From: an uncultured Candidatus Saccharibacteria bacterium
GTDB lineage: Bacteria; Patescibacteriota; Saccharimonadia; Saccharimonadales; AWTP1-31
Length of the DNA stretch: 64,000 nucleotides
Direction of reading: 5' to 3'
NCBI GenBank assembly: GCA_964634445.1
Contig: CAZWJA010000003.1
Span: forward strand, 24,019-88,018
Of the stretch, positions 98-44,007 are shown one piece after another (the stretch's first letter is position 1; the number at the start of each line of letters is the position of its first letter). Made by a program: the position numbers and the translations under genes. The notes under the pieces were generated by a model, which saw only the letters and a program-made list of their open reading frames with translations, ran no database searches and had not been told where the DNA came from.

Positions 98-184
98 TGA
101 ATTTATTGTAACAGCTTACTCTTGCACTTTTAACATCTTATGTCTCAATATTATGTCGCACAATCAACATTCAGCGACGTACCC

Positions 185-260
185 TAACAGGGGTAGAGCC
201 ATTTATTTAGCGACATAAGGCTTTGTCAAGGGCTAGTGTTCTTTTCGCCTACCCCTGTTA
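185..260. repeat. Perfect 12-bp inverted repeat TAACAGGGGTAG (185-196) / CTACCCCTGTTA (249-260) with a 52-nt spacer
   Basis: Read directly from the sequence. It interleaves with a second inverted repeat, TTATGTCGC (151-159) / GCGACATAA (210-218). It lies just 3' of the minus-strand NTPase gene. Confidence 0.6.
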
Positions 261-287
261 AAAAGCATATTATACAATGTTGGTATT

Positions 288-1505
288 TCAGTAATCCAAA
301 TAGAAGTCACAATTGAAATGGCTGTCGTCATTATCACCAGGAAATCTTGAAATTGCCCACGGAATTGAAGGATGTCCCTTTACGCCCTGATTAGGATCAC
401 GAGTAATCAACTTAAAATCGTAACCTCCTCTGACGGGCTTATTCTCTCTATCAAGCAGTCCGCTATTGCCAACAATGGCCGACATTAGGGTATTAAAGTC
501 ACTCCCTCTAGCTACACGCCCTTGTTGTATGAACTGCTCAAAATAAGTCCTTCCGTCACCACTAGGTATTGGCACATATCTAGCCATCTCAAACATAATT
601 GTCATTCTAAAATCAGGGTCCAGACCTTCTTTTACTTGATTGGAGTAATTAAGGTCTGATTTCCTCAGAATCTGCTTCATCTTTCTCAAGGTCATGCCAG
701 GCTTAGCCAGCATTAACTCAAGAAATTGAATCATCTGTTGCTTAGCACCTTGTATTTCCAGATTATCTTTGTCGAATATCTCAGCTACAAACTTCGTTAG
801 ACCTATTCTCCTAGTTGCAAAATGCTCGATTATATCTAGACACTTCAGGTAGGAATCCTGATTTAGATTAAACATTTCATTTGCTATTGGTACTACGACT
901 TTGATTTTTGCTTCCGTGTGCTTTGACCGCAAATAATGTTTAAGGGTTTCTAGGAAGAAGATTCCAGCGTCCCCAGAACGATCAATGTCCTCTACGATTA
1001 TGACCACTTCTTTTTCTTTGCAATGTTTCTCAATTAACCCATCCAGCACCATCTGAACCTCGAAGGTTCTTCTTGCAGGAGTCGTTGAAAAGAAATGATT
1101 TAGACCCTTAACAGCACCCATGCCAGGGATAGAAGCTATAGTACCGACTAACGCTTGCTTATCATCATTCTGCTTACCATCTATCTTGCTCAGAGCTTCA
1201 TTAAACGCCTCCTGATCAATGTGTCGAGCAAATTCGAGTACGAAACCTTCCCATAGGTCCTTTCTTTCTGGGAACTTCCAAGCATCAAATTCAATCCATA
1301 GCGTGTCGCTTGATCTAGTCATATGTATTTGATGGAGCAACGTGCTTTTACCCGATCCGTATTCGCCCACCAACCCAATCATTGACCCACTTTTTGCACC
1401 TATAATCTTTTTATCAAAATCTTTAATCAGCCTACTTAAATCCAGAAGGTCCTCGATCTTGTGGCTTTCATCTAGTAGCTGGGGCTTTTTCACAAAAGAA
1501 ACCAT
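288..1505 (-). CDS. KAP-family-like P-loop NTPase (soluble; no transmembrane insert seen)
   Basis: Walker A is GLVGEYGSGKSTLL, followed by the KAP-typical FDAWKF...LWEGF motif. Walker B-like is VVIIVEDIDRSGD. The start is moved to the internal MVSFVKK (1505) because the 33 upstream codons look like a non-coding extension. Confidence 0.7.
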   Translation of the reverse strand: MVSFVKKPQLLDESHKIEDLLDLSRLIKDFDKKIIGAKSGSMIGLVGEYGSGKSTLLHQIHMTRSSDTLWIEFDAWKFPERKDLWEGFVLEFARHIDQEAFNEALSKIDGKQNDDKQALVGTIASIPGMGAVKGLNHFFSTTPARRTFEVQMVLDGLIEKHCKEKEVVIIVEDIDRSGDAGIFFLETLKHYLRSKHTEAKIKVVVPIANEMFNLNQDSYLKCLDIIEHFATRRIGLTKFVAEIFDKDNLEIQGAKQQMIQFLELMLAKPGMTLRKMKQILRKSDLNYSNQVKEGLDPDFRMTIMFEMARYVPIPSGDGRTYFEQFIQQGRVARGSDFNTLMSAIVGNSGLLDRENKPVRGGYDFKLITRDPNQGVKGHPSIPWAISRFPGDNDDSHFNCDFYLDY

Positions 1506-1767
1506 ACCTCGATTATACCTCCAAATTAACACCTTGGCCACAGGGATAGCACAAATACTCAACTCAAGCCTAGAACACGTCCAGAAAGCTCCTAAATGCT
1601 CCACAAAGGCATTAAATCTTGTTCACTAATCATGCATGAAATACCATAGGCTAGTGCGTATGAGAATTTTGTCCAGATTTTACACCCCTTAACGCCGTTT
1701 GCTTGAATAACTGCTGTACTTTCCGTACATCAAAATCTACAAAATCATCACAAAATGTAGCGATTTT

Positions 1768-2001
1768 CTATGGAAGTGCAAAGAAACTAAATACTACTTC
1801 ACTCTGCCTTTGTTTCGCCGCAGTCATCTTGTCTCTAAACACTTCATTATTACGCATGTAATAAAAGAAAGTTGTCCGACTTATACCAACCCAACGACAA
1901 GCCTCGGTGATTGTACTATTGTGCTGTATCGCATCCTCTAAACGTAGCATAGTAGTGTAGGTTACTTTAGGTGGTCTACCAACAGCTTTTTTGATTTCCA
2001 T
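1768..2001 (-). CDS. Small helix-turn-helix DNA-binding protein
   Basis: GRPPKVTYTTMLRLEDAIQHNSTITEACRWVGISRTTFFYYM is a resolvase/terminase-small-subunit-type HTH. The gene is divergent from recombinase 1. Confidence 0.6.
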   Translation of the reverse strand: MEIKKAVGRPPKVTYTTMLRLEDAIQHNSTITEACRWVGISRTTFFYYMRNNEVFRDKMTAAKQRQSEVVFSFFALP

Positions 2002-2061
2002 TTTTCTCCTTTGTTTTCGGCGTTGCCTCTCTTATCATTATCTCAAATGCATCATTTCTAC

Positions 2062-2090
2062 TTGACAATGCTTATGGTAAGGTGTATAAT
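2062..2090 (+). promoter_or_regulatory. Consensus sigma-70-type promoter (TTGACA, 17 nt spacer, TATAAT)
   Basis: TTGACA at 2062-2067, a 17-nt spacer, then TATAAT at 2085-2090, both matching consensus perfectly. It points toward 2223..4353. Confidence 0.5.
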
Positions 2091-2222
2091 TACTAACATA
2101 GAACTATGCCTCTAGGTGCTTAAAGCACAAACAACAATCGCTATTTTTTAGAGGCGAACAGCATTAAACCAATATAAACCCCTCGACCGTTCAGCGAGGT
2201 AAGTATAGTATTGGATTTTTTA

Positions 2223-2459
2223 ATGCTTACTCCTCAAACGACACAAGAGAGTGGTCAAGAACAAACACAAAACATCAACCCTGAGACACAACAAGATGCT
2301 AGTGATTACCACGCAATGGCATCAGTCGCAGAGCTACTGGTTACGCTTCGTAGCGATAACCAAAGCAACAAATACAAAACTGGGAAGAAACAATACACAA
2401 AAATGGATTTCATTGATAAGAAAACAGGAGAAGTCACCACGCAGCGAGTATTGTTTTAA
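2223..2459 (+). CDS. Hypothetical small Q/T-rich acidic protein
   Basis: This is the ORF-track frame 2211..2459, with the ATG at 2223 preferred. No recognisable domain. It competes with an overlapping alternative frame (2251..2469), so coding status is uncertain. Confidence 0.3.
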   Translation: MLTPQTTQESGQEQTQNINPETQQDASDYHAMASVAELLVTLRSDNQSNKYKTGKKQYTKMDFIDKKTGEVTTQRVLF

Positions 2460-2508
2460 TGTAGCCTAAACTTTCTCGAACTAATACATAGAGCTTATAA
2501 TTGTATCT

Positions 2509-4353
2509 ATGGACACTCTGAACACATCAAAGCAGTTATTCGACTTACTCAAAGAAGGGGTTGATCCTAAAGCTGGAGAAATTGACTATTCCGAACTGAA
2601 GTATGTAATTTATGCAAGAAAGTCTACTACTGGTGATGAAAGACAAGAACGTTCTATACCAGACCAGGTAAGGGATATTAAAGACAAAATTGTTGATGTT
2701 GACCAGATAGATGCCAATGGTGGCAAGTACCGATTAAATGTGAACAAGAAGGCTATCAAAGAGAAGTGTTCAGCTAAAGACCCTGGGATACGAGAGAAAT
2801 TTACCCAGCTCATTCAAGATGTTAAAGACGGTAAAGTAGACGGTATCATTGCATGGCATCCAGACAGATTGTCTCGAAACATGAAGGAGGCTGGTGAGAT
2901 TATCGACTTGCTCGATAAGGGCATCTTAAAAGACCTACGCTTTGCGACATCAACATTCGAAAATAGTCCAACTGGAAAGATGCTTCTCGGCATCTCTTTT
3001 GTCCTGTCCAAGCAATACTCTGAGCACCTTAGCGAGAGTGTAGCCAGAGGTAATCGCCGAAAGATTGAAGAAGGTGTCTTTATTGGCAAATTTAAGCATG
3101 GCTATCGTATGAACAAACAGAGTCAACTGTTTCCTGATGATAATAACTGGGTAATTATCAAAAAAGCATTCGATATGCGACTTAATGGCGAAACTCAACA
3201 GAACATAGCCGAATGGCTAAACACGACAGGTTATCAGGTATTTAAGCGTATAAAAGACGATGACAAAAACTCAGGATTCAAAAGAGCTGATTATACATGG
3301 GGTAAAGATACTGTGTCAGACCTCTTGAAAGACCCGATATACGCAGGGGTACTCAAGTATGGCGATAATCTGTGTAATTTAGAGGAGTTCTATGATTTCT
3401 CTCCTGTCATATCTGTTGAGAACTTCTTGAAAATTAACAAAGTAGACGACCTTAACTCCTCTAAACTAGTGTCATCCATTATGTCTAAAGACAAGCGAGA
3501 TACAAAAGCAAGTCTACTAAACGGAATGATACTTTGCGGGTTCTGCAATAAGGCTTTATCAGCTGGTCTAACATCAAAGGTACTTGCCAGTAAGGAGAAG
3601 ATACATTATTACAATTACAGATGCGAAACTGAGCATTGTGAGTTCAAAAACAAGAGTATCCGTGCAAATGTAATTCTTGATTACTCCTATGCTTTCCTCG
3701 GCGAACACCTATTTACAACTAAATCTAATTACGACAAATTCAAACTGGGTGCTAGGGATCAGGTTATGCAACGCAACAAAGAGATTAGAAGCCTGATTGG
3801 TTCAGCAAAGCAAGGTATTGGACGTAAACAGGAAGAGCTAGACAGTACGAAAGACTTAATTAGACACAATCCTGAACTAAAGGAAGATTACGACCTGAAA
3901 GAGATAAAGAGTGATTTAGAGGATATGAAGGCTGAACTTACGAAGCTAGAAGCTACACTAAAGACATCTAAGGACGCAATTTTGTCTTATGACGAATATC
4001 TCGAACTATTCAAACTCATATCTGTAGAATTGCCAAAATCACAGAATCAAGAGCTACTTGATGGAATACTTAGAATCTTCTTCTCGAACTACACAATTAA
4101 GCGTTACGGAACGGGCAAGCAACAGAGGTACGAAATCACCCATAAATTAAACGAACCCTGGAATGGGTTCGTTAACTCGAAAGATTTCGATCATGGTCGC
4201 AATACAGATACTGCTAACGAACCTGTACTGGACACATTATACAACCTGCTCCTGCACTACAAGTTACTTCTGTCAAAGCTGACCGACCTGAACCAGTTAG
4301 TAGCTGACTTAATCAAGCCAGAGCGAGCCGTTGAAACACAGTTTTTGCTATAA
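2509..4353 (+). CDS. Large serine recombinase 1
   Basis: Resolvase catalytic motifs YVIYARKSTTGDERQERSIPDQ and AWHPDRLSRN. A recombinase domain follows, then a Cys zinc ribbon (CGFCNKAL ... YRCETEHCEF) and a coiled-coil C-terminal region. Confidence 0.9.
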   Translation: MDTLNTSKQLFDLLKEGVDPKAGEIDYSELKYVIYARKSTTGDERQERSIPDQVRDIKDKIVDVDQIDANGGKYRLNVNKKAIKEKCSAKDPGIREKFTQLIQDVKDGKVDGIIAWHPDRLSRNMKEAGEIIDLLDKGILKDLRFATSTFENSPTGKMLLGISFVLSKQYSEHLSESVARGNRRKIEEGVFIGKFKHGYRMNKQSQLFPDDNNWVIIKKAFDMRLNGETQQNIAEWLNTTGYQVFKRIKDDDKNSGFKRADYTWGKDTVSDLLKDPIYAGVLKYGDNLCNLEEFYDFSPVISVENFLKINKVDDLNSSKLVSSIMSKDKRDTKASLLNGMILCGFCNKALSAGLTSKVLASKEKIHYYNYRCETEHCEFKNKSIRANVILDYSYAFLGEHLFTTKSNYDKFKLGARDQVMQRNKEIRSLIGSAKQGIGRKQEELDSTKDLIRHNPELKEDYDLKEIKSDLEDMKAELTKLEATLKTSKDAILSYDEYLELFKLISVELPKSQNQELLDGILRIFFSNYTIKRYGTGKQQRYEITHKLNEPWNGFVNSKDFDHGRNTDTANEPVLDTLYNLLLHYKLLLSKLTDLNQLVADLIKPERAVETQFLL

Positions 4354-4362
4354 TATAAGAGT

Positions 4363-4545
4363 ATGAGTGACGCAAGTGACAACCAACCACAAGACCAAGC
4401 TCCTGCTGAGCCTGTTAGCTTGCCACCGCAAACGTCACCACAGGACACATCTAACTGGGACGACAGACCATTTACCACACCTAGTGACCGAGTTGTTATA
4501 GAGACATTTCAAGGAAGCGACGACGAAGTTGTCGTAGCTGAATAA
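4363..4545 (+). CDS. Hypothetical small acidic P/Q-rich protein
   Basis: ORF only, no recognisable domain. It starts 10 nt after the recombinase 1 stop. Confidence 0.35.
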   Translation: MSDASDNQPQDQAPAEPVSLPPQTSPQDTSNWDDRPFTTPSDRVVIETFQGSDDEVVVAE

Positions 4546-4625
4546 CTAAACCTAAAACTTGCTGAACCTACCAGTAGCTACCAACTACCTACAATAATTA
4601 TAACTAATTAGTAGGAGTTACTTCT

Positions 4626-5039
4626 ATGAGTAAAACATTAGACGAAAAACAGCAGTTTATTGAACTGCGAGCCAAAGGTTACAGCTACCAGAAAATAGCT
4701 GATGATATTGGTGTAAGCAAACCAACCCTAATTGAGTGGTCAAAGGAAGAGCAAACGTCAAAGGACATACACAACCAACGAACGCTGTACCTAGACGAGT
4801 TACAAGAAAAGTATGCAATGACTAAACGTCATAGGATTGCCGTGTTTGGCGATGTACTGAACCGAGCAAAGGCAGAACTTGATAAGCGTGACTTGTCAGA
4901 AATGTCCACTGACAAGCTGGTAACAATGGTTATTAAGTTAAGTGACACGTTACGGCAGGACGAAACGGAGCTAGAACTACACGGAGACTATGAGCTACCT
5001 GCCTTTGGACTTGGTGAAATGACTAAGTGGAAGATTTAA
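4626..5039 (+). CDS. HTH DNA-binding protein with coiled-coil tail
   Basis: The N-terminal sequence LRAKGYSYQKIADDIGVSKPTLIEWSKE is a resolvase/IS-type HTH. An AGGAG ribosome-binding site lies upstream (4612-4616). Confidence 0.6.
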   Translation: MSKTLDEKQQFIELRAKGYSYQKIADDIGVSKPTLIEWSKEEQTSKDIHNQRTLYLDELQEKYAMTKRHRIAVFGDVLNRAKAELDKRDLSEMSTDKLVTMVIKLSDTLRQDETELELHGDYELPAFGLGEMTKWKI

Positions 5040-5126
5040 CGACCAAAAATTGACCGTTTTTTAACCGATAAGCCTTTTATTGGCTATCTGTTAGTTGTAT
5101 AATAATGTTATATAAAGTGAGATTGT

Positions 5127-5309
5127 ATGACCGACACTAAACAACCAGAATATTTAACCCTTACACAAGCCTGTGAACTGTTGCAGGTACACCCAAACAC
5201 CCTACGAAACTGGGACAAAAAAGGTGTACTGAAAGCCAACCGCATAGGCATACGTGGCATACGACGTTACAAGCGTGAAGACTTAATTAAGTTTATGGAG
5301 AAGAAGTGA
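5127..5309 (+). CDS. Excisionase/MerR-type HTH protein (possible recombination directionality factor)
   Basis: LTLTQACELLQVHPNTLRNWDKKGVLKANRIG...RRYKREDL matches the HTH_17/excisionase pattern. It is 60 aa long and is the first gene of the coupled operon. Confidence 0.65.
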   Translation: MTDTKQPEYLTLTQACELLQVHPNTLRNWDKKGVLKANRIGIRGIRRYKREDLIKFMEKK

Positions 5310-5863
5310 GCGAAGTTGTGACCGATAAAACCGAGACTGCACCGACAAAGGAAATGACCGCACAGGACGTGGTTGATGTTATTAAACTATGTGACGAAAA
5401 CGGTATAGAGGTCTACGTTGACGGTGGTTGGGGTGTGGACGCCTTACTTGGCGAACAAACACGAAAACACGGTGACCTAGATATTGCACTACCCCACATA
5501 CACGTACCAAAGTTAAGGGAGCTGCTTGAAGCAAAAGGCTATAAGGACGTCCCCCGTGACGACACAAGGGACTGCAATTTTGTGCTGGGTGATGATAAGG
5601 GACACGAGATTGATTTTCACTCATACACCTTTGACGAAAACGGTAAAAACGTGTTTGGAGTGGCTTACGAACCACGTCACTTAACAGGCACAGGGTCTAT
5701 AAATGGCTATGCCGTTAAGTGCATACCAGCAGACGTAATGGTTGAGTTTCATAGCGGTTATGAATTAGACCAAGATGACTATCACGATGTTAAAGCATTG
5801 TGTGACAGATTTGATATACCACTACCAGCAGAGTACGAAAAGTTTAAGACAGAGGGGGTGTAA
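5306..5863 (+). CDS. ANT(2'')-Ia-family (PF10706-like) nucleotidyltransferase
   Basis: VDGGWGVDALLGEQTRKHGDLDI closely parallels the ANT(2'')-Ia active-site stretch GGGWAIDARLGRVTRKHDDIDL, which I am recalling from memory. Size is about 185 aa. The GTG start overlaps the upstream stop (GTGA). Confidence 0.75.
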   Translation: MSEVVTDKTETAPTKEMTAQDVVDVIKLCDENGIEVYVDGGWGVDALLGEQTRKHGDLDIALPHIHVPKLRELLEAKGYKDVPRDDTRDCNFVLGDDKGHEIDFHSYTFDENGKNVFGVAYEPRHLTGTGSINGYAVKCIPADVMVEFHSGYELDQDDYHDVKALCDRFDIPLPAEYEKFKTEGV

Positions 5864-6519
5864 TGCCACCAGGAGTACGACCAGACTTTAAGTACGACAG
5901 CTCTAAGCTGGTATTAACGTGCAGAAATTGCCATAACAAGGTACTTGCAGTTGCCCTAACTGACGTACCAGAAGTGAAATATGGCGACACCGAAGTGTGG
6001 CTGATAGCTAAATGTCCGCAATGTAGCGAAAAGGTATTTGTTATATTTGACACCTTGAACCACTACGTCAGCAGGACTTTTCCTTTTGGCTACATCACAG
6101 CCTCTGATTACAGTGATGATATACCAGAAAACATACGCACCGACCTAGCAGAAGCCGAGTTGTGTAGGCGAGCACAGGCATATCGGGCGTCAGTTGTCTT
6201 ATATAGACGAGTAGTTGAAAGTGTCGCCAAAAAGGAGCTTGGTCAAAAGAAGATAACTGATAATAAAGCAGATAACCTCAAAAAGAAAATCACACTGATG
6301 TTTAGCGAGGGGCTGATTACAAAGCCAATAGAGCAACAGGCTCAGGAAATAAGAGAGTTTGGCAACTACGGTGCTCACCCAGCAGATGACGGGCTTGACC
6401 TTGATATTGGTAGAGAAGACGTTGAACTAATTGACGACCTAGTATGGGACATAATTCGTACTATTTACATACAGTCAGCCAATCACAAGAAACTAAAAGC
6501 TAAGCGGACAGGAGAATAA
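5863..6519 (+). CDS. Zinc-ribbon plus DUF4145-like domain protein
   Basis: The N-terminal region has CRNC...CPQC (a 4-Cys ribbon). The C-terminal helical region, AYRASVVLYRRVVESVAKK ... REFGNYGAHPADD, matches the DUF4145 pattern. The start overlaps the upstream stop (TAATG). Confidence 0.6.
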   Translation: MPPGVRPDFKYDSSKLVLTCRNCHNKVLAVALTDVPEVKYGDTEVWLIAKCPQCSEKVFVIFDTLNHYVSRTFPFGYITASDYSDDIPENIRTDLAEAELCRRAQAYRASVVLYRRVVESVAKKELGQKKITDNKADNLKKKITLMFSEGLITKPIEQQAQEIREFGNYGAHPADDGLDLDIGREDVELIDDLVWDIIRTIYIQSANHKKLKAKRTGE

Positions 6520-6521
6520 TT

Positions 6522-7256
6522 ATGAAAACAATTCTTATAACTGGTGCTACGAGAGGCATAGGACGGGCTATTACCGACAAGCTATTGTCAGAGGGTCACA
6601 CGATTTACGGTGTTCATAAGGAAAGCAGCTCTCAAGCTGACGAAATGACCTCTAAACACGGTGACAAGTTTAAGTCTATACGAGCAGACCTTGCCAAACC
6701 AGATGACACAAAACAGCTACTAGAACAGCTTAAAGACGTACAGCTAGACGGCATTGTAAACAACGCTGGCATTGTGTACTTAACAAAATGGGACGAGTTG
6801 AACTTTGACGAGTGGGACGAAACACTAGCCGTTAACCTAACTGCTCCTCTTAAATTAGTACACGGATTACGTAACAACTTAAAAGACGGCTCAACGGTAG
6901 TAAATATAGCTTCTGTGGACGGATTTTGTGCTGCATTTGACACTGTTGCCTATGCAGCAAGCAAGGCTGGACTTATTAGTCTAACAAAATCACTTGCTGC
7001 AATTTTAGGCTCACGTAACATACGGGTAAATGCTGTTGCACCAGGCTGGGTTGAGACCGAAATGACAGCCGATACTATGCCTGATGAAAGCAAAGAGCTT
7101 ACACCGTTAAAGCGTAATGCTAAGCCCGAAGAAGTGGCGAGCGTAGTTAGTTTTCTGATGTCAGACCAAGCCAGTTTTGTTAGTGGTACAACCCTAACTG
7201 TTGACGGTGGTTTAACTACCGTTGACTACACGCTATACAAGGAAGCAAACCGATGA
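6522..7256 (+). CDS. Short-chain dehydrogenase/reductase (classical SDR, FabG-like)
   Basis: Contains TGATRGIGRAI (TGxxxGxG), NNAG, the catalytic YAASKAG (YxxxK) and the PGWVETEM motif. Confidence 0.9.
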   Translation: MKTILITGATRGIGRAITDKLLSEGHTIYGVHKESSSQADEMTSKHGDKFKSIRADLAKPDDTKQLLEQLKDVQLDGIVNNAGIVYLTKWDELNFDEWDETLAVNLTAPLKLVHGLRNNLKDGSTVVNIASVDGFCAAFDTVAYAASKAGLISLTKSLAAILGSRNIRVNAVAPGWVETEMTADTMPDESKELTPLKRNAKPEEVASVVSFLMSDQASFVSGTTLTVDGGLTTVDYTLYKEANR

Positions 7257-7696
7257 AAATCTTTGTAGCAGCGTCCTACTCGTCACAAGTTAATTATGAA
7301 ACTGGTGAGGTTTTTCCAGAATACAAGGAGTGGCTGGAAAGTACACTGGGAGTGATAGAAGCTCTTGGTCATACAGTCTTTTGTGCATTACGAGCAGACC
7401 AGTACAAAATCAACGACGCTGACCCAGCAGAAGCATTTAGCCTTGATATGGAACATATAGAGCAAAGTGACGTTTTACTGGCGTTGTTAAGCGATAAACC
7501 CTCTGCTGGTGTTCAGACCGAAATTGGGGTGGCGGTGGCACTCAAAAAGCAAGTACTGTTAGCCCATTTACCAGAACACGAACTTGCATACTTTAATGCT
7601 GCAATGGCAAAAGCAGGTGTTATAACCGAGCTTGAACTACCACTTACAGCAGAGGGAATTGGCAAAGTACTAAATGCCAGACAAGAAGCCTCGTAA
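7253..7696 (+). CDS. Nucleoside 2-deoxyribosyltransferase-fold protein (NDT-like), copy 1
   Basis: It opens with MKIFVAASY in the N-terminal strand and has SDVLLALL ... SAGVQTEIGVAVALKKQVLLA, the S.G...E.G.A.ALkK.v pattern of the NDT family. The ATGA overlaps the SDR stop. A paralog lies at 37464..37874. Confidence 0.55.
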   Translation: MKIFVAASYSSQVNYETGEVFPEYKEWLESTLGVIEALGHTVFCALRADQYKINDADPAEAFSLDMEHIEQSDVLLALLSDKPSAGVQTEIGVAVALKKQVLLAHLPEHELAYFNAAMAKAGVITELELPLTAEGIGKVLNARQEAS

Positions 7697-9515
7697 AAAA
7701 CGTCAAAAGGTACTGCTACCAAAGGACAAACAGCTTGAGACTGAGCAAAAGTTAGCCAAGCGTAAAGCTGAAAATCCTGACGTGTATACCCTGCCCGTCA
7801 GTAAGCGTAGCGTCCAAGACCTAACCGAATACTTTGTACGAGTTGAAGAGGGTGCAAACCGCATATTGCCCAAAGAGAAACGCCGTTACGTGGTGTATCT
7901 GCGTAAGTCTACTGATGATGAAGCCAAGCAGGTACGGTCACTGGAAGACCAACGAGCCGAGTGCCTAGAACTAGCTCACAGGCTTAAAATAACAGTAGAC
8001 GAACGGGACATACTTGAAGAAAGTGCTTCTGCAAAAATATCAGGCAACAGACCCATATTTGACGATATGATTATGGGCTTTAAGACAGGTAAGTATCACG
8101 GGCTAATTGCTTGGTCACCAGACCGCATATCACGCAATATGAAAGAAGCTGGCGAGGTCATAGAAATGATTGACCAAGAGCAAATACAAGACTTGCAATT
8201 CAAGACCTACCAGTTTGAGAACAACCCGAACGGCAAAATGCTACTAGGCATACTGTTTGCCACATCTAAGCAGTATTCTGACAAATTGTCAGTGGACGTA
8301 AGCAGAGGCATTACAGGCAATATCAAGGACGGTAAGTACACGGGTGTTACCAAAAAGGGTTACTACGTAGACAAAAGTACGGGCTACTTTATGCCAGACG
8401 GTTATAACTGGGACTTGCTGCGTGAAGCAGTCAATATGAGACTGTATCAGGGTAAAAACAATATAGAGATTGCTGACTTCTTGAATAAATCACATCTAGG
8501 TGTCAGAAAAGACCAAGACGAAGACCACGCAATGGTCAAAGTAGACAAGCAAATGGTAGGCGATATTTTTGCCGACCCGTTTTATTTTGGCTTGTATCAG
8601 TACGGTAAGAACTTGGCTGATTTGACTGAACTGTACGACTTCCTGCCATTGCTTACACCCGACGAACATATTCAGCTTAATCAAGGCATAGCAAGTAGTT
8701 TTGGTGTTAAATATGCTGGCAAAGCCGTACAAAATAAACGCCTAGACTACGGACTGTTACGAGGCAAGGTCATTTGTGATTACTGCGACACCATAATGCA
8801 GTTTCAGCACCAGGAAATTAAGCGTGGTAAAAACAAAGGTCGCTGGCTGATTAGCTTCTACTGCCGAAACAAGGACTGCCAACGCTACAAGGACGAAGAG
8901 AACGCCAAAGCAGGTATAAAGCTCAAGAAGAGTGTACGAGCTGGCATTGTAATGGCTCATATAGAGTGGACACTGCGTAACTGTACTAAGAAAAGCAAAC
9001 AGGCGTATAGGCAGTACATTGACAGGTTGAGCGTCAGATTGGCTCAGGACACGGCGATTGCTAAACGTAAGCTATCAGAAGCCAAGACCGACCTGCGAAC
9101 CAATGAAAAGCAGTATGCGAGGTATCAGGACTTTCAGATTAAGCACCCTGCTGATTACAAGAAGCACCATACTGGCAAGCTGGAACATCACCAGCAACTT
9201 ATAAACGTAGCCAAGCACAACATTAATAAGAGCGAGGACGAACTGAAACGGTTGAGTGCTGGACTGCCTACCGAGAAAGAGTTTTACGAACTTGTTAAAT
9301 CGTATCTGGTGACGCTACTGAAAACGACTGATTTAATGGAACAAGACGCTGTGTGTAACGAGCTGGTGTTGAACCTACGAGTAGCAAACGACGCTGTATC
9401 TGTTATAAAGCTAAATCCACCATACAATATGCTGGTGGATTTAACGAAAATATCTACTGGTCGGGGTGAAAGGACTCGAACCTTCGACCTGACGGTCCCA
9501 AACCGTCCGCGCTAG
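7674..9515 (+). CDS. Large serine recombinase 2 (3' end reads into tRNA-Pro)
   Basis: Contains YVVYLRKSTDDEAKQVRSLEDQ and AWSPDRISRN, plus a zinc ribbon CDYCDTIM ... FYCRNKDCQRY and a coiled coil. It has a Lys/Arg-rich 70-aa N-terminal extension. The last ~19 codons are the antisense of tRNA-Pro. Confidence 0.9.
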   Translation: MPDKKPRKKRQKVLLPKDKQLETEQKLAKRKAENPDVYTLPVSKRSVQDLTEYFVRVEEGANRILPKEKRRYVVYLRKSTDDEAKQVRSLEDQRAECLELAHRLKITVDERDILEESASAKISGNRPIFDDMIMGFKTGKYHGLIAWSPDRISRNMKEAGEVIEMIDQEQIQDLQFKTYQFENNPNGKMLLGILFATSKQYSDKLSVDVSRGITGNIKDGKYTGVTKKGYYVDKSTGYFMPDGYNWDLLREAVNMRLYQGKNNIEIADFLNKSHLGVRKDQDEDHAMVKVDKQMVGDIFADPFYFGLYQYGKNLADLTELYDFLPLLTPDEHIQLNQGIASSFGVKYAGKAVQNKRLDYGLLRGKVICDYCDTIMQFQHQEIKRGKNKGRWLISFYCRNKDCQRYKDEENAKAGIKLKKSVRAGIVMAHIEWTLRNCTKKSKQAYRQYIDRLSVRLAQDTAIAKRKLSEAKTDLRTNEKQYARYQDFQIKHPADYKKHHTGKLEHHQQLINVAKHNINKSEDELKRLSAGLPTEKEFYELVKSYLVTLLKTTDLMEQDAVCNELVLNLRVANDAVSVIKLNPPYNMLVDLTKISTGRGERTRTFDLTVPNRPR

Positions 9516-9534
9516 CCAACTGCGCCACACCCCG
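9458..9534 (-). tRNA. tRNA-Pro (anticodon UGG), CCA encoded
   Basis: Manual cloverleaf: acceptor CGGGGTG/CACCCCG, D arm GCGC-AGTTGGCTA-GCGC, anticodon arm GACGG-TTTGGGA-CCGTC, variable AGGTC, T arm GAAGG-TTCGAGT-CCTTT (one G.U pair), discriminator A, then CCA. Total 77 nt. Confidence 0.9.
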
Positions 9535-9571
9535 ATACCCGGGTAATTTTAACAGATTGAATGTTATTTTA

Positions 9572-10210
9572 CTATACCTCTATCTCTATGCTTTCCCCGT
9601 CAACGGGTCGGATAATTCTTGTGTCTGTATTCTTGAATACATCTTCAAGACGGTTATAGACATGGTTTCGCCATTCATCATTCCACATCCAATCGTGAAT
9701 CGGAATAATATACTTTGGCTTTAATTCCAGTCCTAATTCAAAAGCCCGGATAGTAGTACCCCATGGAGCTTGCACAGGTAGCAGTAAAACGTCTTTAGTT
9801 TCATTAAAATCATGGGTATCACCTGGACCTGTTACCTTGCCGAATATATTTACGATTAAGTTTTGGACTTGGACGCCAAAAGGAACGACTTTGGCATGGT
9901 CTACTGTCTTAACTTCAACTACATCTGTCGACTGGTCGCTGACGTTTATTACACCCAACGATTTAAGATCGTCAAAAGCATCAGCCGGGGCAAGCCACCG
10001 TACGTCTGGTTGTAGTTCGACAATTGCTTTTACGAATGGCTCACCAAGATGGTCGGCGTGTTTATGAGTCACAATAACAGCATCTAACTTAGGAAACTTG
10101 GAAACTTCTATTATACCGCTGTTCCAACTAAATATTCCCGGGTCAATTAGAATTACTTTTCCTGCCTCTTCAATTAAGACGCACGAATGGACTAGCTTTG
10201 TGATTTTCAT
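9572..10210 (-). CDS. MBL-fold metallo-hydrolase
   Basis: HxHxDH motif (VTHKHADHLG), an N-terminal beta-lactamase-fold pattern (KLVHSCVLIE) and a C-terminal His (IPIHDW). Confidence 0.8.
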   Translation of the reverse strand: MKITKLVHSCVLIEEAGKVILIDPGIFSWNSGIIEVSKFPKLDAVIVTHKHADHLGEPFVKAIVELQPDVRWLAPADAFDDLKSLGVINVSDQSTDVVEVKTVDHAKVVPFGVQVQNLIVNIFGKVTGPGDTHDFNETKDVLLLPVQAPWGTTIRAFELGLELKPKYIIPIHDWMWNDEWRNHVYNRLEDVFKNTDTRIIRPVDGESIEIEV

Positions 10211-10212
10211 AT

Positions 10213-10407
10213 CTAGTCTTTCCCAAAGGGGTTATCTCTAACTACCTGGCTGCCAATTCCAGCAATCATACCGAGCAAAAAGATAATGAAAGCAATTGTT
10301 AATTTGGCCAATATTGCGAAAACTATTCCAGTTGCTATCAATATTAGAGCTGAAGCTAGCAGCTGCTTGGCAAGGTTGGGTTTTGGAGGAATATCGAACT
10401 TTGCCAT
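10213..10407 (-). CDS. Small membrane protein
   Basis: 64 aa with two hydrophobic helices. It is tightly packed between its neighbours (2-nt gaps). Confidence 0.45.
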   Translation of the reverse strand: MAKFDIPPKPNLAKQLLASALILIATGIVFAILAKLTIAFIIFLLGMIAGIGSQVVRDNPFGKD

Positions 10408-10409
10408 TT

Positions 10410-10736
10410 TCAGTACCCGCTTGGAATTCCAGATTTAGCAGGTACTTTTTCTGCCCTTGTTAAGAGTCTTCTATATTCTAAATTACGAGATGAAATGTCT
10501 AATTCCAATGATTCTAATAGACTAGCAAACCCGTCTAGCGTATTTGTTTGTCGATCAATGCTTTTTTCAAGTTTTGTAACATTTTCTTCAAGTTGATTAA
10601 ATCTATGATCAACATTAATAGCCAACTGATTTATAACGTCTGTTAAATCATCAACTATTTTATTGCTGAGATCTTTTCCAAAGTCTATCAAGTCGCTTTT
10701 ACTTACATAGTCGGTTTGAGAATTTTTTACTGCCAT
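10410..10736 (-). CDS. Hypothetical coiled-coil protein (tail motif AK.G....Y)
   Basis: Heptad-like helical sequence. The C-terminal ...AEKVPAKSGIPSGY resembles the tail of the ORF at 41261..41500. Confidence 0.45.
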   Translation of the reverse strand: MAVKNSQTDYVSKSDLIDFGKDLSNKIVDDLTDVINQLAINVDHRFNQLEENVTKLEKSIDRQTNTLDGFASLLESLELDISSRNLEYRRLLTRAEKVPAKSGIPSGY

Positions 10737-10783
10737 CGTAAGAATATATTACGCCTTAAGTTATTCTCAAACAATTGTATTAT

Positions 10784-12298
10784 CTACTTGGCGAATTCAA
10801 TTGCCCGGGTTTCTCGAATAACATTCACTTTGATAGTACCTGGGTACTGCATAGTGCTTTCAATCTTGTTGGCAATGTCTCGAGCTAGTCGGATTGCACT
10901 TAGGTCATCTACATTCTGAGGTTTTACGAAAACTCTGACTTCTCGTCCAGCACTAATGGCGTAGCTCTTATCGATGCCTTCGAAACCGTTGGCAATATTT
11001 TCTAGTTCCTTCATTCTTTCGCCGAAATTCTCAGCGCTTATGTTTCGGGCGCCAGGACGTGATGCGCTAATCGCATCTACCACTCGGACAATGACTGCCT
11101 CTACGCTGGTCGCTTCGACGTCGTCGTGATGCTGCTCGGCTGCTAATGCAACTGCCTCGGGCGCACCGTACTTACGCAGCATTTCCCCACTAATATGGTG
11201 GTGCTTGCCCTCTATCTTATGAGTTAAAGCTTTGCCTAAGTCGTGGACTAGAGCCGCGTACTTGGCAATCCGGACATCTGCGCCGACTTCTTCGGCGATA
11301 ACACCGGCAATATGGGCCATCTCAGTACTGTGCTTCAGAACGTTCTGTCCATAGCTAGTCCGGTATTTAAGTTCACCGAGAAGCTGAAGTACTTCCTTTG
11401 GTATTCCAATTACTCCGACTTCACGAGCTGCATCTTCTCCAGCCCGGATAACATCTTTCTGGACATTCTTCTGAGCCTTTTCTACGACTTCTTCTATTCT
11501 TCCTGGATGTACTCGTCCGTCTTTTAACAACAGCTCAAGAGCTTGTCTTGCGACTTCACGCCTAACAGGATCAAACGAACTTAGGATGATCATACCAGGC
11601 GTGTCGTCGACCATGATGTCGACACCGGTGGCCCGCTGCAGCGACTGGATATTACGGCCTTCCTTGCCAATGATTCGGCCCTTCATTTCTTCGTCTTCTA
11701 ATTTGACAGCTGTTACCGTTCGCTCTGCTGTCACTTCACTAGCCATCCTCTCCATAGCAGAAGTCAGGATAACGGCCGCTTTTTCTTCTGCATTGTCTTT
11801 AGCCTCATTCTGCAATTTGTTTACAAGACCAAGAAGATCATTTTTGATATCGCGTTCAGTCATCTTGATAAGCTTCTCTGCTGCTTCTTCTTTCGTCAGC
11901 TTAGCGACTTTTTCCAGCTTTTCAGTCTGGCGTTTTCGGATATCACGAATCTCATTCTTAAGTTCCTCTAATTCGTCTTCGCCTTTACGCAGTGCATCTC
12001 CGCGCTTGTCTAATTGGTCAAGCTTCTTATCTAACGACTCCTGCCGGTCTAACAATTTCTGTTCAATTTCTTTAATTTCACGCCGTCTTGTCTGCTCGTC
12101 TTTACGGGCAGCATCGGCCATCTTGTTGGCTTCCTCACGGGCATCGCTAATAGCTTTTTCTGCTTCCTTGCGGGCTTTCTTGAGTTCCTTTTCAGCTGCA
12201 TCCTGAGCTGTTCCTATTTTTCTTTTGCTTGAATACGTACTGGCACCAAAGCCAATACCAAGCCCAGCCAATGCTAGTACAATGGTTATCGGGTCCAT
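10784..12298 (-). CDS. rny: Ribonuclease Y
   Basis: N-terminal transmembrane helix, a long charged coiled coil, a KH domain (GRIIGKEGRNIQ) and an HD domain (HDLGKA ... HH). Confidence 0.92.
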   Translation of the reverse strand: MDPITIVLALAGLGIGFGASTYSSKRKIGTAQDAAEKELKKARKEAEKAISDAREEANKMADAARKDEQTRRREIKEIEQKLLDRQESLDKKLDQLDKRGDALRKGEDELEELKNEIRDIRKRQTEKLEKVAKLTKEEAAEKLIKMTERDIKNDLLGLVNKLQNEAKDNAEEKAAVILTSAMERMASEVTAERTVTAVKLEDEEMKGRIIGKEGRNIQSLQRATGVDIMVDDTPGMIILSSFDPVRREVARQALELLLKDGRVHPGRIEEVVEKAQKNVQKDVIRAGEDAAREVGVIGIPKEVLQLLGELKYRTSYGQNVLKHSTEMAHIAGVIAEEVGADVRIAKYAALVHDLGKALTHKIEGKHHHISGEMLRKYGAPEAVALAAEQHHDDVEATSVEAVIVRVVDAISASRPGARNISAENFGERMKELENIANGFEGIDKSYAISAGREVRVFVKPQNVDDLSAIRLARDIANKIESTMQYPGTIKVNVIRETRAIEFAK

Positions 12299-12506
12299 GT
12301 CACTCCCTTTCTATATTTGCAGAAACAAGTGGCATCACTATCACTTCATTAGCCGCATGTTATCTGTTGTTTCGAATTTTAATAATTTCTGAATGTTGGT
12401 AGATGCCTTGAATAAACGCACTATCCTAAACATAATAATAGCATATTTGCCTTAAATATAGTTTATGTTATTGTAATTTTTCTGCTTTTAAAACTAACCG
12501 TAAATA

Positions 12507-12899
12507 TTACTTGCGCGGTTTTGTAATATGAACCGGTGCGCCGTATTCGGGTAATACCAGCTCGTCATTTTCGTTGTTCATGAGCGTGTCGATACCGTCT
12601 ATGGTCCAGTCGCTGCCGTTTGTGCCGACTATTGGAATATTGTTTTGGAAGGCAATAGTATTAGCCACACTTATACTGATTCGAAGTCCCGTAAAGCTGC
12701 CTGGACCTTTATAACAAATTATTCCGTCAATATCGCTCCAGGTTATCTTATGGCTATCTAGTAGTTTTTTAATTTTCAAGTGAATAGTCTCAGCTAGCTG
12801 CCTGTGTGCTTGCCACTTTTCATAAGCCAGCTTTTCCGTGTCATCAAATAGGCCTACTTCTGCTTCCGGTTTATCACCCCTAATAGTTAGTATTATCAT
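12507..12899 (-). CDS. tsaB: tRNA t6A37 biosynthesis protein TsaB (short form)
   Basis: The GPGSFTGLRISISVAN motif is present and tsaE is adjacent. At 130 aa it is shorter than the canonical ~230 aa. Confidence 0.7.
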   Translation of the reverse strand: MIILTIRGDKPEAEVGLFDDTEKLAYEKWQAHRQLAETIHLKIKKLLDSHKITWSDIDGIICYKGPGSFTGLRISISVANTIAFQNNIPIVGTNGSDWTIDGIDTLMNNENDELVLPEYGAPVHITKPRK

Positions 12900-13363
12900 T
12901 ATATTTCTTCCATTAAGTAGTTCAGATCTTGGGGAATTCTTATTGAAATCTCCCGATTATTTTCACCGGTTGATTTGATATTTACTTTTAGTCTACTGTC
13001 CGGCAATACGTCCTTAATTATATCGGCCCATTCAACCACTACGACCGCTTTAGGATCGGACAAGCCTTCTTCCAACTCGTGCCTGATTATTCCTGGATCG
13101 CTTAGTCGGTAAAAGTCGTAGTGGTAGATAGTCAGGTCTTTAGCTTTGTACTGCTTGCAGATCATAAAAGTCGGGCTAGCAACAATATCTTTGCTGCCAG
13201 CTCCTTTTGCCAGCCCCCTGACAAAAGTAGTCTTGCCGCCGCCGAGGTCGCTAGTAAGTTCAATGACTTCACCGCCGGTAAGCTTCCTGCCTAGTTTTTC
13301 ACCTAGGTTTTCGGATTCGTCTGAGCTTGTGGTAGAAATTGAATAAGTCTTGTCGGTATTCAT
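12899..13363 (-). CDS. tsaE: tRNA t6A37 ATPase TsaE
   Basis: P-loop [23 protein letters not shown] and the HYDFYRL motif. The start is moved to MNTDKTY (ATG at 13363). The track's 45 upstream codons overlap the preceding gene and look non-coding. Confidence 0.85.
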
Positions 13364-14564
13364 ATGCCCCGTATAGTACAGCCAAGCCGCCGACTCCTGC
13401 AAGTACCCCTGAATGCATAGTTGCCTTAGCTGGCAGATTTGTAGCATCGGATAGTACAGACCCCGCTTTCTTGGCCGCCTGCGATTTCTTACTGGCAACT
13501 TTTGGTTTTGCCTTGGTACTGGTTTTTGTTTTAGCCGCCTTATCAGTCTTAGCCTCTTTTGTGCTCGCGCCGACTAACGGTTCGCTGATTACATTAGCCG
13601 AGTTTGGTGTGACTGAAGAAGTCCATTTCCATGTGCCATTGTCCAACGCCCATGAGCTGCCGGCTGGTGCTGATGCATATCTGGAAGTTTCGAATGAGGC
13701 AGTGCCGTCCGGCCGAAGCAGTTTGGCTTTGCCCTCGGTGTTAGCCAAAGTAAGTTTTGTTTCGGTTATGTAATATGCATGGTACGAATTAGCAGCAATT
13801 TCCTGATCCTTGAAGGTAAAAGAATGGTTCAGTGTTGCACCAGTCATTAGCTTGTATCCAGTCAGCTTTACTGGTACGTCGTACGGGTTATATAGTTCAA
13901 TAAACTCGCCGTTTGCATCTGTTGCTGGCTTAGCCGGATGAGGCAAAAGCTCGCTAATTTCAATGTCGTAGATACCACTTCCAGAGATTAAATTCTCTGA
14001 TGGTATATTACCAGTTTCTATTAGCGTGAAATCAGCCGAATTATTCTGACTATTCACATAGTCTCCATTAGAGTCCTTATTCCTATTTAAAATCTGGCCA
14101 GGAGACATAGCAGACGCAGGAGTACCAAGCGGTTGCAAGGCAGTTCCCCAGCCGACTAGATCTTCTTGGGTAGAGCTAATATTTCTAACTAATCTGACCT
14201 GCCCGCCGGCTGCAGCTAATGTCGGACTAAAACTGAAGTTAGAACTAGAGGTCATATAACCACTGCTGGTAGCGGTAAGAAAAGACTTTGCTCCTATTAC
14301 CCCGCTAAGTAGAATAGTCCGGGTAGGCGAATTAAAATCCTTGGCTGTTGCCGGGTAATATTCCAATTTCCAACCGTTTAAATCTGTTGGACTTGATCCA
14401 GAATTATATATTTCAATAAATTCTTCGCTCGCCGAAGCAGAACTGCCAGCCTGAATTTTAGTAATTTTTAAGCCGGATGCTGCCTGAACATTACTGCCAG
14501 CTGCAAGCGATATACCTAAAACAATAGCAGTTAGCAGACCAATTACCCCTTTGACCCTCATCAT
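13299..14564 (-). CDS. Secreted, C-terminally anchored protein with two lamin-tail (LTD) domains
   Basis: It has a signal peptide. There are two LTD signatures ([20 protein letters not shown] and [20 protein letters not shown]). A K/A/T-rich linker and a C-terminal transmembrane helix ([15 protein letters not shown]) follow. Confidence 0.7.
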
Positions 14565-14687
14565 GAAATAAATATACGACTGTATTTAGATTGTTGCAAC
14601 ATATTTAATATATAAACACAAGTACTTTCAATTATCTCGTAGTATGCTCATTTGTAGAATTTTTTAGAACAAAATAATCAGTATTTA

Positions 14688-15905
14688 TTACTGATCATCT
14701 CGGAGAGCATCTACCGGACTAATTTTTTCAGCTCTACGCGCCGGAAAGTATGAAACACCTAGTCCTACTACAATCATGAATATGATCAAGATAATAGGTA
14801 ACCACCATGGCACTGAAATAATTGAAAAAGTCTCGTTAAAACCACGACGAGCTACAACAGTTTTCATAACTAGATTGATGAGTATGCCTCCAAAAACCGC
14901 TAATAATATACCTAGCATCGAGCCGATTACTGATAGCAGAATACTTTCATAGATAAATAATCTACGAATATCTCGGTTACGTACACCTAGTGCAATCATA
15001 AGTCCTATTTCTCTCGTTCTTTCAAGCAGTGAGATAGTTAAGGTATTAAACATTCCTAAAATAGCTACTAGCATACCAATTGACCCGAAGCCAATAAGTA
15101 TTATATTTATATAATTAAAAAGTTTACTGATTTGCTGAATAGTGTCTAATGGCGAAGTTGTTATAAAACCTAAACTTTCTATTTTGCTGCGTATTTCAGA
15201 AATATTATCTATATTATCAGCAACAACTTTTATTTGTGAATAATTTGTAACTTTATTAGCATCGAACAAACTACGAGGTATAAAAACCTCACTTCCACTT
15301 CCAGAATCGGTAACACCTATAACTTTGTATTTTTGAGAGACTTCCTGAACGGAATCAGCCTTTTCTATAAACACAATCAGTTCCATAGTCTTACCGATTG
15401 CTTGATCTGCTCCAATTCCAAGGATTTCTAATCCAGCACTATTAATTACTACTCTATCGGTCTCCTCATTAGCGAAAAACTTTCCTTTTATTAAGTCAAG
15501 ACTGGCAATTGAATGATACGATTCATCGACACCGTAAACTATAGTATCGGTTTCACTACCGTTTAGCTTTATGGTACCTGAACTATCAAAGCTGCCACCT
15601 ACATGATCGACGTTAGGTAGGTTTTTAATTTTTTCAGAATTTTGTTGATCAATTTTAATTATTGCCGAATTAGGACTTGTTACATCTAGAGTCTTGACAG
15701 ATTGACTCCCTATAATTTCATGAGTTACTAGATTTTGCAAGCCCAAACCAAGCGACAGTAGGAAAAATATTGAGCCTATGCCCACAGTCACACCGGCAAT
15801 TGTAAGGAGAGTACGAAGTTTTTTGAACTTCAGGTTACTCCAGGCCATAAAAAAGCTAATTTGCTTAGAAACTGCCGTAAAGGATTTTTTAAATTCGGGT
15901 TGCAT
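14688..15905 (-). CDS. ABC transporter permease, FtsX/MacB type
   Basis: N-terminal transmembrane helix, a large extracytoplasmic domain, then three C-terminal helices of the FtsX-like fold. Overlaps the ATPase gene by 17 nt. Confidence 0.85.
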   Translation of the reverse strand: MQPEFKKSFTAVSKQISFFMAWSNLKFKKLRTLLTIAGVTVGIGSIFFLLSLGLGLQNLVTHEIIGSQSVKTLDVTSPNSAIIKIDQQNSEKIKNLPNVDHVGGSFDSSGTIKLNGSETDTIVYGVDESYHSIASLDLIKGKFFANEETDRVVINSAGLEILGIGADQAIGKTMELIVFIEKADSVQEVSQKYKVIGVTDSGSGSEVFIPRSLFDANKVTNYSQIKVVADNIDNISEIRSKIESLGFITTSPLDTIQQISKLFNYINIILIGFGSIGMLVAILGMFNTLTISLLERTREIGLMIALGVRNRDIRRLFIYESILLSVIGSMLGILLAVFGGILINLVMKTVVARRGFNETFSIISVPWWLPIILIIFMIVVGLGVSYFPARRAEKISPVDALRDDQ

Positions 15906-16686: not shown

Positions 16687-16688
16687 AA

Positions 16689-41227: not shown

Positions 41228-41260
41228 ATAACATCCATGATCTGATATACTTAGTGCACT

Positions 41261-43610: not shown

Positions 43611-43614
43611 AGAT

Positions 43615-43989: not shown

Positions 43990-44007
43990 ATTATATTTCT
44001 AATTAAA

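Follow-up and report, generated by a model that had tools for sequence, protein, structure and literature searches.

Why does a recombinase gene run on, in frame, into the antisense strand of a tRNA gene, and which part of its C-terminus is its own? We addressed this question in a 64,000-nt stretch of DNA (hereafter the window) from an uncultured Candidatus Saccharibacteria bacterium (assembly GCA_964634445.1, contig CAZWJA010000003.1, positions 24,019-88,018). The window carries two related open reading frames (ORFs) with Resolvase and Recombinase Pfam domains, Rec1 (2509-4353, 614 residues) and Rec2 (7674-9515, 613 residues), the second of which overlaps a tRNA-Pro gene. We consider it very probable that positions 4194-9463 constitute a 5.26-kb integrative circular element whose own attachment site (attP) lies inside its Rec2 gene, the C-terminal tail of the recombinase being exchanged on integration and excision. 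Comparison with related loci places the junction within the hexamer TGGTCG and the attP within the recombinase ORF, and it establishes at the sequence level the division of the gene into body and tail, their in-frame rejoining, the tandem arrangement of the locus and the wide recurrence of this organisation.

Right junction

The right-hand border of the element comprises the following features:

9458-9534, minus strand: tRNA-Pro(TGG), complete, with CCA encoded at 9458-9460 (ARAGORN); integration target and B' arm of the chromosomal attachment site (attB)
9458-9463, no strand: core TGGTCG at the right junction (attR), reverse complement of the CGACCA that closes the tRNA; the sole block common to attR, the left junction (attL) and the attP of circular relatives
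7674-9464, plus strand: Rec2 body, a large serine recombinase, as far as its GR codons (Pfam Resolvase and Recombinase; tblastx match to the circular contig L001 ends at 9464)
9465-9515, plus strand: junction-derived tail GERTRTFDLTVPNRPR and stop codon, antisense of the tRNA acceptor, T and anticodon arms; in homologues it varies with tRNA identity
9413-9457, plus strand: P arm of the attachment site, which is the final coding part of the Rec2 body; kept in 33 tRNA-Pro junctions
9477-9483, no strand: CGAACCT in the B' arm (T-loop/T-stem antisense), 13 nt past the core (arm profile and sequence)

A first-pass annotation of this DNA had proposed that the Rec2 ORF crosses the junction between an element and the tRNA gene, that its likeness to Rec1 ends at a shared GR, that its last residues are derived from the junction, and that the junction could be located to within a few bp. 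All four proposals were borne out, with small corrections to the counts. The ORF overlaps the tRNA gene by 58 nt, its GR codons (ggt cgg) occupy 9459-9464, and the residues that follow, 16 rather than 17, are the reverse complement of the tRNA. The BLASTP alignment of Rec1 with Rec2 continues for only 4 residues beyond the GR, one of them identical, and the paired C-terminal 19-mers share 8 identities rather than 9. The junction itself lies within the 6 bp of the core, and the tail varies with tRNA identity in homologues and is absent from circular forms.

The same annotation held that the discovery of GERTRTFDL-type tails at unrelated loci would mark them as genuine coding sequence. Such sharing was indeed seen, but these homologues share the tail because they too sit at tRNA-Pro, and the claim of a junction-derived end stands. 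Where the protein stops is set by where the tRNA antisense holds a stop codon: some homologues end in GRG, others in GRGDRI or GRGDRT where the T-loop antisense contains TGA, others read on through VPNRARYQLRHTP, and a small number of tails derive from the antisense of tRNAs other than tRNA-Pro. Since the tail varies with the tRNA, and tRNA-antisense ends are widespread in both recombinase families, we read the GERTRT tail from these sequences as a consequence of the shared insertion site and not as a conserved C-terminus. When positions 1-20000 were searched for island borders in the form of directly repeated tRNA 3' ends, the 6-bp core was the only repeat.

Both proteins show the tested hallmarks of large serine recombinases. 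An N-terminal Resolvase-type catalytic domain (PF00239; E = 1.7e-18 in Rec2, 1.7e-17 in Rec1), containing the motif YxRKST with a Ser that is invariant in 84 of 84 aligned sequences, is followed by a Recombinase domain (PF07508; E = 3e-11 in Rec1 and 6.1e-05, above the curated cut-off, in Rec2). The Pfam match to a zinc ribbon is weak in Rec1 (E = 0.0012, below the cut-off) and absent in Rec2; the four zinc-ribbon Cys residues (C368, C371, C397 and C402) are invariant in the alignments, and the AlphaFold model of the homologue P0017 predicts a coiled coil inserted in the zinc ribbon (helices 447-495 and 507-533; predicted local distance difference test score, pLDDT, ~90). Rec1 and Rec2 are 30% identical (E = 1e-63, BLASTP), and a search against the sequences of solved structures gave a match confined to the catalytic domain.

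Circular contigs and the predicted excision product

Tails unrelated to tRNA were found in 6 proteins of the Rec2 family and ~8 of the Rec1 family. In P0017, P0021 and P0103, Rec2-like bodies are followed by a ~50-residue tail (..TDTAIEP.L..LYNLLLNY...QFLL, then a stop) that is close to the "extra" end of Rec1. The contig encoding P0017 (4680 nt; L001/L002) has a 127-nt exact terminal overlap and closes to a circle of 4553 bp. Four samples yielded contigs that encode P0021 (L003-L006) and differ by circular permutation of the gene order; one of these contigs has a 127-nt terminal overlap (L004) and another repeats its start at 6904 (L003), giving a circle of 6904 bp. P0129, of the Rec1 family, lies on a 5637-bp circle recovered from two samples (L091/L092). 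All circular contigs carry body, core and tail in succession, and none carries a tRNA; we infer that they are free replicons or excision products and not collapsed repeats.

Translated comparison (tblastx) ties these circles to the window. Positions 7677-9464 match L001 841-2628 with 77% amino acid identity, the match ending exactly at 9464, and from 2629 onwards L001 matches the tail at window 4201-4362, then 4402-4545 and 4617-4994, the two genes after the tail being syntenic. The circle junction reads ...tatctac TGGTCG aactacagatact..., the right junction of the window ...atatctac TGGTCG gggtgaaagg, entering the tRNA, and the left junction at 4194 ...tttcgatca TGGTCG caatacagatact.... Judged by these alignments, the Rec2 element is an L001-type circle opened at the GR codons. 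Joining 7674-9463 to 4200-4353, as excision is predicted to do, yields a single ORF of 647 residues that ends QFLL and is 76.6% identical end to end to P0017, in agreement with the earlier suggestion that excision would change the Rec2 C-terminus. The predicted circular junction (attP) of the window element is ...AATATCTAC-TGGTCG-CAATACAGATACT, equally GATTTAACGAAAATATCTAC-TGGTCG-CAATACAGATACTGCTAACGAACCT, and the site predicted to be restored after excision is AAAGATTTCGATCA-TGGTCG-GGGTGAAAGGACTCGAACC.

Left junction and tandem array

The other end of the element lies within the Rec1 ORF, and its features are as follows:

4194-4199, no strand: core TGGTCG at the left junction (attL) of the Rec2 element, inside the Rec1 ORF; the same core and tail follow unrelated host DNA in the single elements L010, L011 and L013
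4201-4353, plus strand: displaced C-terminal tail of the Rec2 element, 50 codons and stop (NTDTANEP...QFLL), in frame with the Rec1 body; syntenic with the L001 tail
4218-4224, no strand: CGAACCT in the P' arm (codons N-E-P), 18 nt past the core, 5 bp further out than in the tRNA arm (arm profile and sequence)
2509-4200, plus strand: Rec1 body, a large serine recombinase of a second subfamily with the same tRNA end as target (Pfam); homologues such as P0121 (87% identical) end DHGRGERTRTFDLTVPNRAR
4194-9463, plus strand: whole Rec2 element, 5264 bp core to core; corresponds to an L001-type circle, circularly permuted and opened at the core
1-4193, plus strand: right-hand part of the Rec1 element (Pfam), the left end of which lies outside the window; neither a plus-strand TGGTCG nor tail-like sequence was found in 1-4193

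Single elements at tRNA-Pro(TGG) in three other loci, with recombinases 88% (L010), 97% (L011) and 98% (L013) identical to Rec2, show the arrangement in its simplest form: on the left, unrelated host DNA is followed by TGGTCG and an intact orphan tail, and on the right the body is followed by TGGTCG and the tRNA. The protein encoded at 4201-4353 of the window is 100% identical to the orphan tail of L013. Because the last 50 codons of Rec1 equal that orphan tail, they belong to the Rec2 element, and 4194-4199 is its left junction. The first-pass annotation had described this end of Rec1 as 51 non-homologous codons by which Rec1 likewise continues beyond its GR; it consists of 50 codons and a stop, and it is the true conserved tail of the neighbouring element. 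We therefore read the locus, from its sequence and that of its relatives, as a tandem array, with the Rec1 body continuing in frame into the tail of the element next to it. An identical 614-residue body-plus-tail protein, followed as in the window by a 60-residue ORF, occurs in a separate assembly (L012), and after loss of the Rec2 element Rec1 is predicted to end GRGERTRTFDLTVPNRPR at 580 residues, like its relative P0121. The sole other contig encoding the Rec1 of the window is 2.5 kb long, and neither the outer junction nor the native sequence downstream of the tRNA can be read from it. In L011, a 76-residue ORF (7874-8104) begins in unrelated host DNA and crosses the core into the orphan tail.

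These observations suggest the following mechanism. The attP would lie in the 3' part of the Rec2 gene, centred on the TGGTCG that covers the GR codons, and attB would be the 3' end (CGACCA) of tRNA-Pro(TGG). Integration would keep the tRNA intact and split the recombinase gene, joining the catalytic and DNA-binding body to 16 meaningless tRNA-antisense codons at the right junction (9458-9463) and leaving the true, helical tail of ~50 residues behind at the left junction (4194-4199). Excision would necessarily rejoin body and tail in frame to give the 647-residue protein. The related Rec1 element occupies the same tRNA site, so that the two form the tandem array and the Rec2 tail is at present read as the Rec1 C-terminus. 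The order in which the two elements arrived we can at most infer.

Recurrence across Saccharibacteria

A search with Rec2 returned 398 homologues, the best 120 of which are 58-98% identical, and ~110 of these 120 end in a tRNA-antisense tail or stop no more than 5 residues past the GR; the same is true of ~103 of the best 120 among 1557 matches to the Rec1 family. We surveyed 73 loci from species-representative genomes, nearly all of them metagenome-assembled genomes of Saccharibacteria with a few from other Patescibacteria, and found 58 junctions at which the end of the recombinase body coincides exactly with the CCA end of a tRNA in antisense orientation. Given this number of exact junctions and the proportion of such endings in both families, the arrangement is not due to chance. 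The tRNA at these junctions is mostly tRNA-Pro (TGG, GGG or CGG), with Val, Gln, Leu and Ser also represented. The core varies with the tRNA, being TGGTGG for Val and TGGCGG for Ser, and the same core is found at the left junction of the same element, where an orphan tail lies behind it 2.8-7.9 kb upstream of the end of the body, distances that correspond to the sizes of the elements. All 136 of 136 tRNA genes in the surveyed loci encode CCA. Unoccupied tRNA-Pro genes in these loci end ...CCGACCA and are followed by unrelated sequence, which indicates that the core is native to the target.

Unoccupied tRNA-Pro genes with the CCGACCA end also occur in the same genomes as occupied ones (L010 6026-6102, L028 and 9 other loci; mostly the CGG isoacceptor), and in L028 it is the TGG gene that is free and the CGG gene that is occupied. 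Since free genes share this end, something beyond the core and the T-arm motif must guide the choice of target.

Further tandem arrays were found in L039, L040, L072, L073 and L087, the last holding at least 3 elements. At L039 11683-11720 a recombinase body and core are followed by ~15 nt more of a tRNA 3' end and then by unrelated DNA, with a second recombinase and tRNA downstream, and this tRNA fragment is not explained by simple tandem insertion at the core. Orphan B-type tails, each followed after 0.7-1.6 kb by the next core with no recombinase between, occur at L048/L049 2342-3935 and L021 5574-6321, one of them with a mutated core, TAGTCG. They are decayed remnants of elements, always on the side away from the tRNA, and their distal position (L021, L048) is weak evidence for the entry of new insertions next to the tRNA. 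The idea that the elements are phages was dropped, as the viral contigs of IMG/VR contained no relatives of them.

Site recognition

The arms flanking the core were profiled across 33 right junctions at tRNA-Pro and 39 left junctions. The motif CGAACCT lies 18 nt after the core in the P' arm and 13 nt after it in the B' arm, an outward shift of 5 bp in attP. It is established for large serine integrases that the zinc-ribbon motif lies 5 bp further out in attP than in attB, and in the attP of phiC31 positions ±4-15 are contacted by the recombinase domain and ±17-27 by the zinc-ribbon domain (10.1101/2025.05.02.651858). By analogy, CGAACCT is probably the sequence read by the zinc-ribbon domain. 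The host-side B arm showed no conservation in the profiles, and this side of attB is apparently not recognised specifically. Recognition of a universal tRNA feature by one half-site would explain both the switches between tRNAs and the insertion beside a tRNA that is already occupied. Large serine recombinases cleave with a 2-bp stagger at a central dinucleotide and need no host factors; here the sequences define the 6-bp block of identity, and estimates of the centre of the site conflict. The outer motifs place it about halfway along TGGTCG, the Rec1 P arm at TG, and the inner AGATA(C) motifs 2 nt to the right of the position given by the outer ones.

The displaced tail

Every one of the 42 A-type tails, 39 of them unique, has an uninterrupted frame of 51-52 codons, and their alignment needs just one indel, of one codon. 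They have a conserved hydrophobic pattern and a pairwise ratio of nonsynonymous to synonymous substitution (dN/dS) of ~0.35, and the value is again ~0.35 when counted from codon 13 onwards, past the expected attachment site. On these comparative grounds we regard the tail as real coding sequence. AlphaFold models the body with confidence to ~residue 600; its low-confidence model of the tail comprises a linker and a single long helix. Searched against 1.84 billion proteins, the tail matched no known domain; it matched short ORFs of 54-155 residues that end in the tail, one of which (P0241, 76 residues) matches the left-junction ORF of L011, and gave multi-stretch matches to long leucine-rich proteins, which we regard as compositional. 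The short proteins (P0241-P0270) can be read as orphan tails called as small ORFs and annotated as hypothetical.

At least 3 further tail families (B, C and D) are common to the Rec1 and Rec2 families. At least 4 unrelated tail families are shared by subfamilies whose bodies are 30% identical, as seen from the tails in P0015, P0063, P0111, P0129, P0163, P0164, P0184 and P0220 and at L087 17238-17364. It seems that elements swap tails at the core that they have in common. In most tail families the terminal residues are hydrophobic or aromatic (FLL, LVF, YAY, YRY, VVY), the exceptions being P0063 (VSV) and P0163/P0164 (SIS, ITS); such endings in several families are only suggestive of a proteolysis tag.

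Does the exchange of tails matter to the enzyme? It may be real yet without consequence, the attP overlapping the 3' end of the gene through compactness and the body alone working in both states, and this we regard as a serious contender, while stopping short of calling it probable. The body is a complete, confidently modelled recombinase, integrated forms tolerate from 1 to ~40 junk residues in place of the tail, some tail families have 12 residues only, and the DNA motif CGAACCT accounts, through the N-E-P codons, for part of the conservation. The fixed length and hydrophobic pattern of the A-type tails argue in the opposite direction, as does their dN/dS beyond the attachment site, and these tails are conserved despite being orphaned in nearly all sequenced copies.

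More tentatively, and with considerable doubt that it holds as a whole, we suggest that tail exchange acts as a self-contained sensor of state. The tailed isoform, made only from the circle, would serve as the integration enzyme, and the tail-less isoform, made only from the chromosome, would differ from it in directionality or stability. The isoform that topology allows would then largely set the direction of recombination, with no need of a separately regulated factor, and a half-site formed by the T-arm and CCA would let the family retarget tRNAs and stack arrays. That tail loss on integration alters the activity, directionality or stability of the enzyme is speculative, as are two further conjectures: that a 60-residue HTH_17 protein (5127-5309) is a directionality factor that helps excision, and that convergent transcription of the tRNA damps expression of the recombinase in the inserted state.

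Alternative explanations

Several observations weigh against an integrative element with an intragenic attP. An attB without a conserved B arm is unusual for large serine recombinases, and attP equals attB over the core, which prevents the crossover dinucleotide from being placed by sequence alone. Certain tail families are short, with 12 residues in L054 and L065, and the pLDDT of the tail is low (35-59). The exact 29-mer of the predicted attP had 0 matches in metagenome contigs, among which the circle of this very element was not found, and a degenerate attP pattern returned the L001 contig only. Circular-looking contigs could in principle be collapsed tandem repeats. Finally, no empty attB is available from the source genome, and the left end of the array lies beyond the window.

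The absence of the exact circle from the metagenome collection searched would suit the view that the window copy is an immobile fossil, in which the recombinase gene merely runs into the tRNA and excision is over. We think this improbable, as body and orphan tail are both intact, as are the two cores, with the frame preserved, and recombinases 97-98% identical to Rec2 sit at tRNA-Pro in other host contexts and with other cargo (L011, L013), which implies recent movement. It is still less likely that body, core and tail adjoin on the "circular" contigs only through the collapse of tandem chromosomal copies, with no free circles behind them. Heterologous tandem arrays are common in the family, and identical tandem copies would assemble as circles; against this, there are three different circles, the 6.9-kb one was recovered from 4 samples with different permutation points and lacks host flanks, and the position of the junction and the in-frame fusion would be unchanged even if the contigs had arisen in this way. 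The view that GERTRTFDL...R is a real, conserved recombinase C-terminus and its overlap with the tRNA an ordinary gene overlap is scarcely credible, for although many homologues have this tail, it differs according to the tRNA (with variants for Val, Gln, Leu, Ser and Ala), it ends wherever a chance stop falls in the tRNA antisense (after GRG or GRGDRI, or read-through into ...YQLRHTP...) and the circular forms lack it.

Relation to known systems

An integrative element that carries its attP within its own serine recombinase gene resembles several known systems in part. Like the large serine integrases of phages and other elements (phiC31, Bxb1, LI/A118, SPbeta), Rec1 and Rec2 combine a resolvase and a recombinase domain with a zinc ribbon into which a coiled coil is inserted, and their short attachment sites show minimal identity between attP and attB and the 5-bp motif shift; unlike them, the window element targets the 3' CCA end of a tRNA and not a protein-coding gene, has its attP in the recombinase ORF, and conserves only the tRNA half-site of attB. 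Tyrosine-integrase islands likewise target tRNA 3' ends, leave the tRNA intact, place the recombinase gene next to it and form tandem arrays, but they are bordered by direct repeats of tens of bp, whereas the window enzyme is a serine recombinase and its junctions share 6 bp only. Staphylococcal cassette chromosome (SCC) elements, mobilised by the CcrAB serine recombinases, insert at the 3' end of rlmH, carry two recombinases per element and have an attP outside the recombinase gene; the similarity to the present elements lies in 3'-end insertion that spares a conserved gene and in tandem pile-up, and the differences in the target, the number of recombinases and the position of attP.

The "suicidal" tyrosine integrases of the Sulfolobus spindle-shaped virus (SSV) type, found in archaeal viruses and plasmids, have an attP within the integrase ORF, insert into tRNA genes and form hybrid enzymes (PMC7253208). 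They share with the window element the intragenic attP, the splitting of the gene by tRNA-gene integration and the mixing of bodies and tails. They are archaeal tyrosine recombinases inactivated by the split, whereas the window encodes a bacterial serine recombinase with a Resolvase domain which, to judge from sequence and models, would lose a C-terminal tail of ~50 residues only and keep all recognised domains in the body. In mycobacteriophage BPs and its relatives, attP lies in the 3' part of the repressor gene and integration removes a degradation tag (PMC4557955). There too integration changes the C-terminus of a protein, which reports the integration state; the gene split in BPs is the repressor, and in the window it is the recombinase itself. 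Intragenic attP (in SSV-type integrases) and integration-driven change of a C-terminus (in the BPs repressor) are thus already known, and what appears to be new here is the serine integrase case. A full-text literature search found no account of Saccharibacteria serine recombinases at tRNA genes, nor of an attP inside a serine integrase gene or a serine integrase C-terminus altered by integration, and a large survey of large serine recombinases makes no mention of tRNA.

For serine-integrase biology, these elements would form a family in which attP is intragenic, the target is a tRNA 3' end and a single half-site specifies attB, and they would provide two natural isoforms of one enzyme whose direct comparison tests the effect of a C-terminal extension on directionality. 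Saccharibacteria and other Patescibacteria are short of genetic tools, and elements of 3-8 kb with a 6-bp core and defined arms are natural candidates for integration vectors, their integration target being present in every genome. On a practical level, users of sequence databases should be aware that hundreds of "recombinase" proteins in this family have tRNA-antisense C-termini, and that the true tail is entered as a small hypothetical ORF at the opposite end of the element.

Cargo and neighbouring features

The remaining genes of the Rec2 element are as follows:

4363-5039, plus strand: 60-residue ORF and 137-residue HTH_23 protein, conserved element genes (tblastx to L001; Pfam)
5127-5309, plus strand: 60-residue HTH_17/MerR-like (excisionase-like) protein, candidate directionality factor (PF12728, E = 1.8e-12); conserved in L004, L010, L011 and L087
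5306-7696, plus strand: cargo comprising an ANT(2'')-like nucleotidyltransferase, a DUF4145 protein, a short-chain dehydrogenase/reductase (SDR) and a nucleoside deoxyribosyltransferase-like protein (Pfam)

The cargo between the HTH_17 gene and the recombinase gene differs among the window, L010 and L011, although the recombinases are 88-98% identical: L010 (7646-9991) carries a methyltransferase, a DUF4145 protein, an SDR and a cupin, and L011 (9064-10008) a UPF0020 methyltransferase alone. This zone looks like one of cassette exchange. The gene at 5306-5863 of the window matches aminoglycoside 2''-adenylyltransferase (PF10706, E = 6.8e-30) and is possibly antibiotic-resistance cargo on a Saccharibacteria mobile element. 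A KAP-family P-loop nucleoside triphosphatase is encoded at 288-1604 on the minus strand, probably within the Rec1 element; proteins of this type are frequent in defence islands. Elsewhere in the window, 41000-45000 and 58000-60200 are regions of low G+C content (0.34-0.39) that adjoin two tRNA-Lys genes (41151-41227, plus strand, and 60153-60229, minus strand), neither of which is adjoined by a large recombinase ORF.

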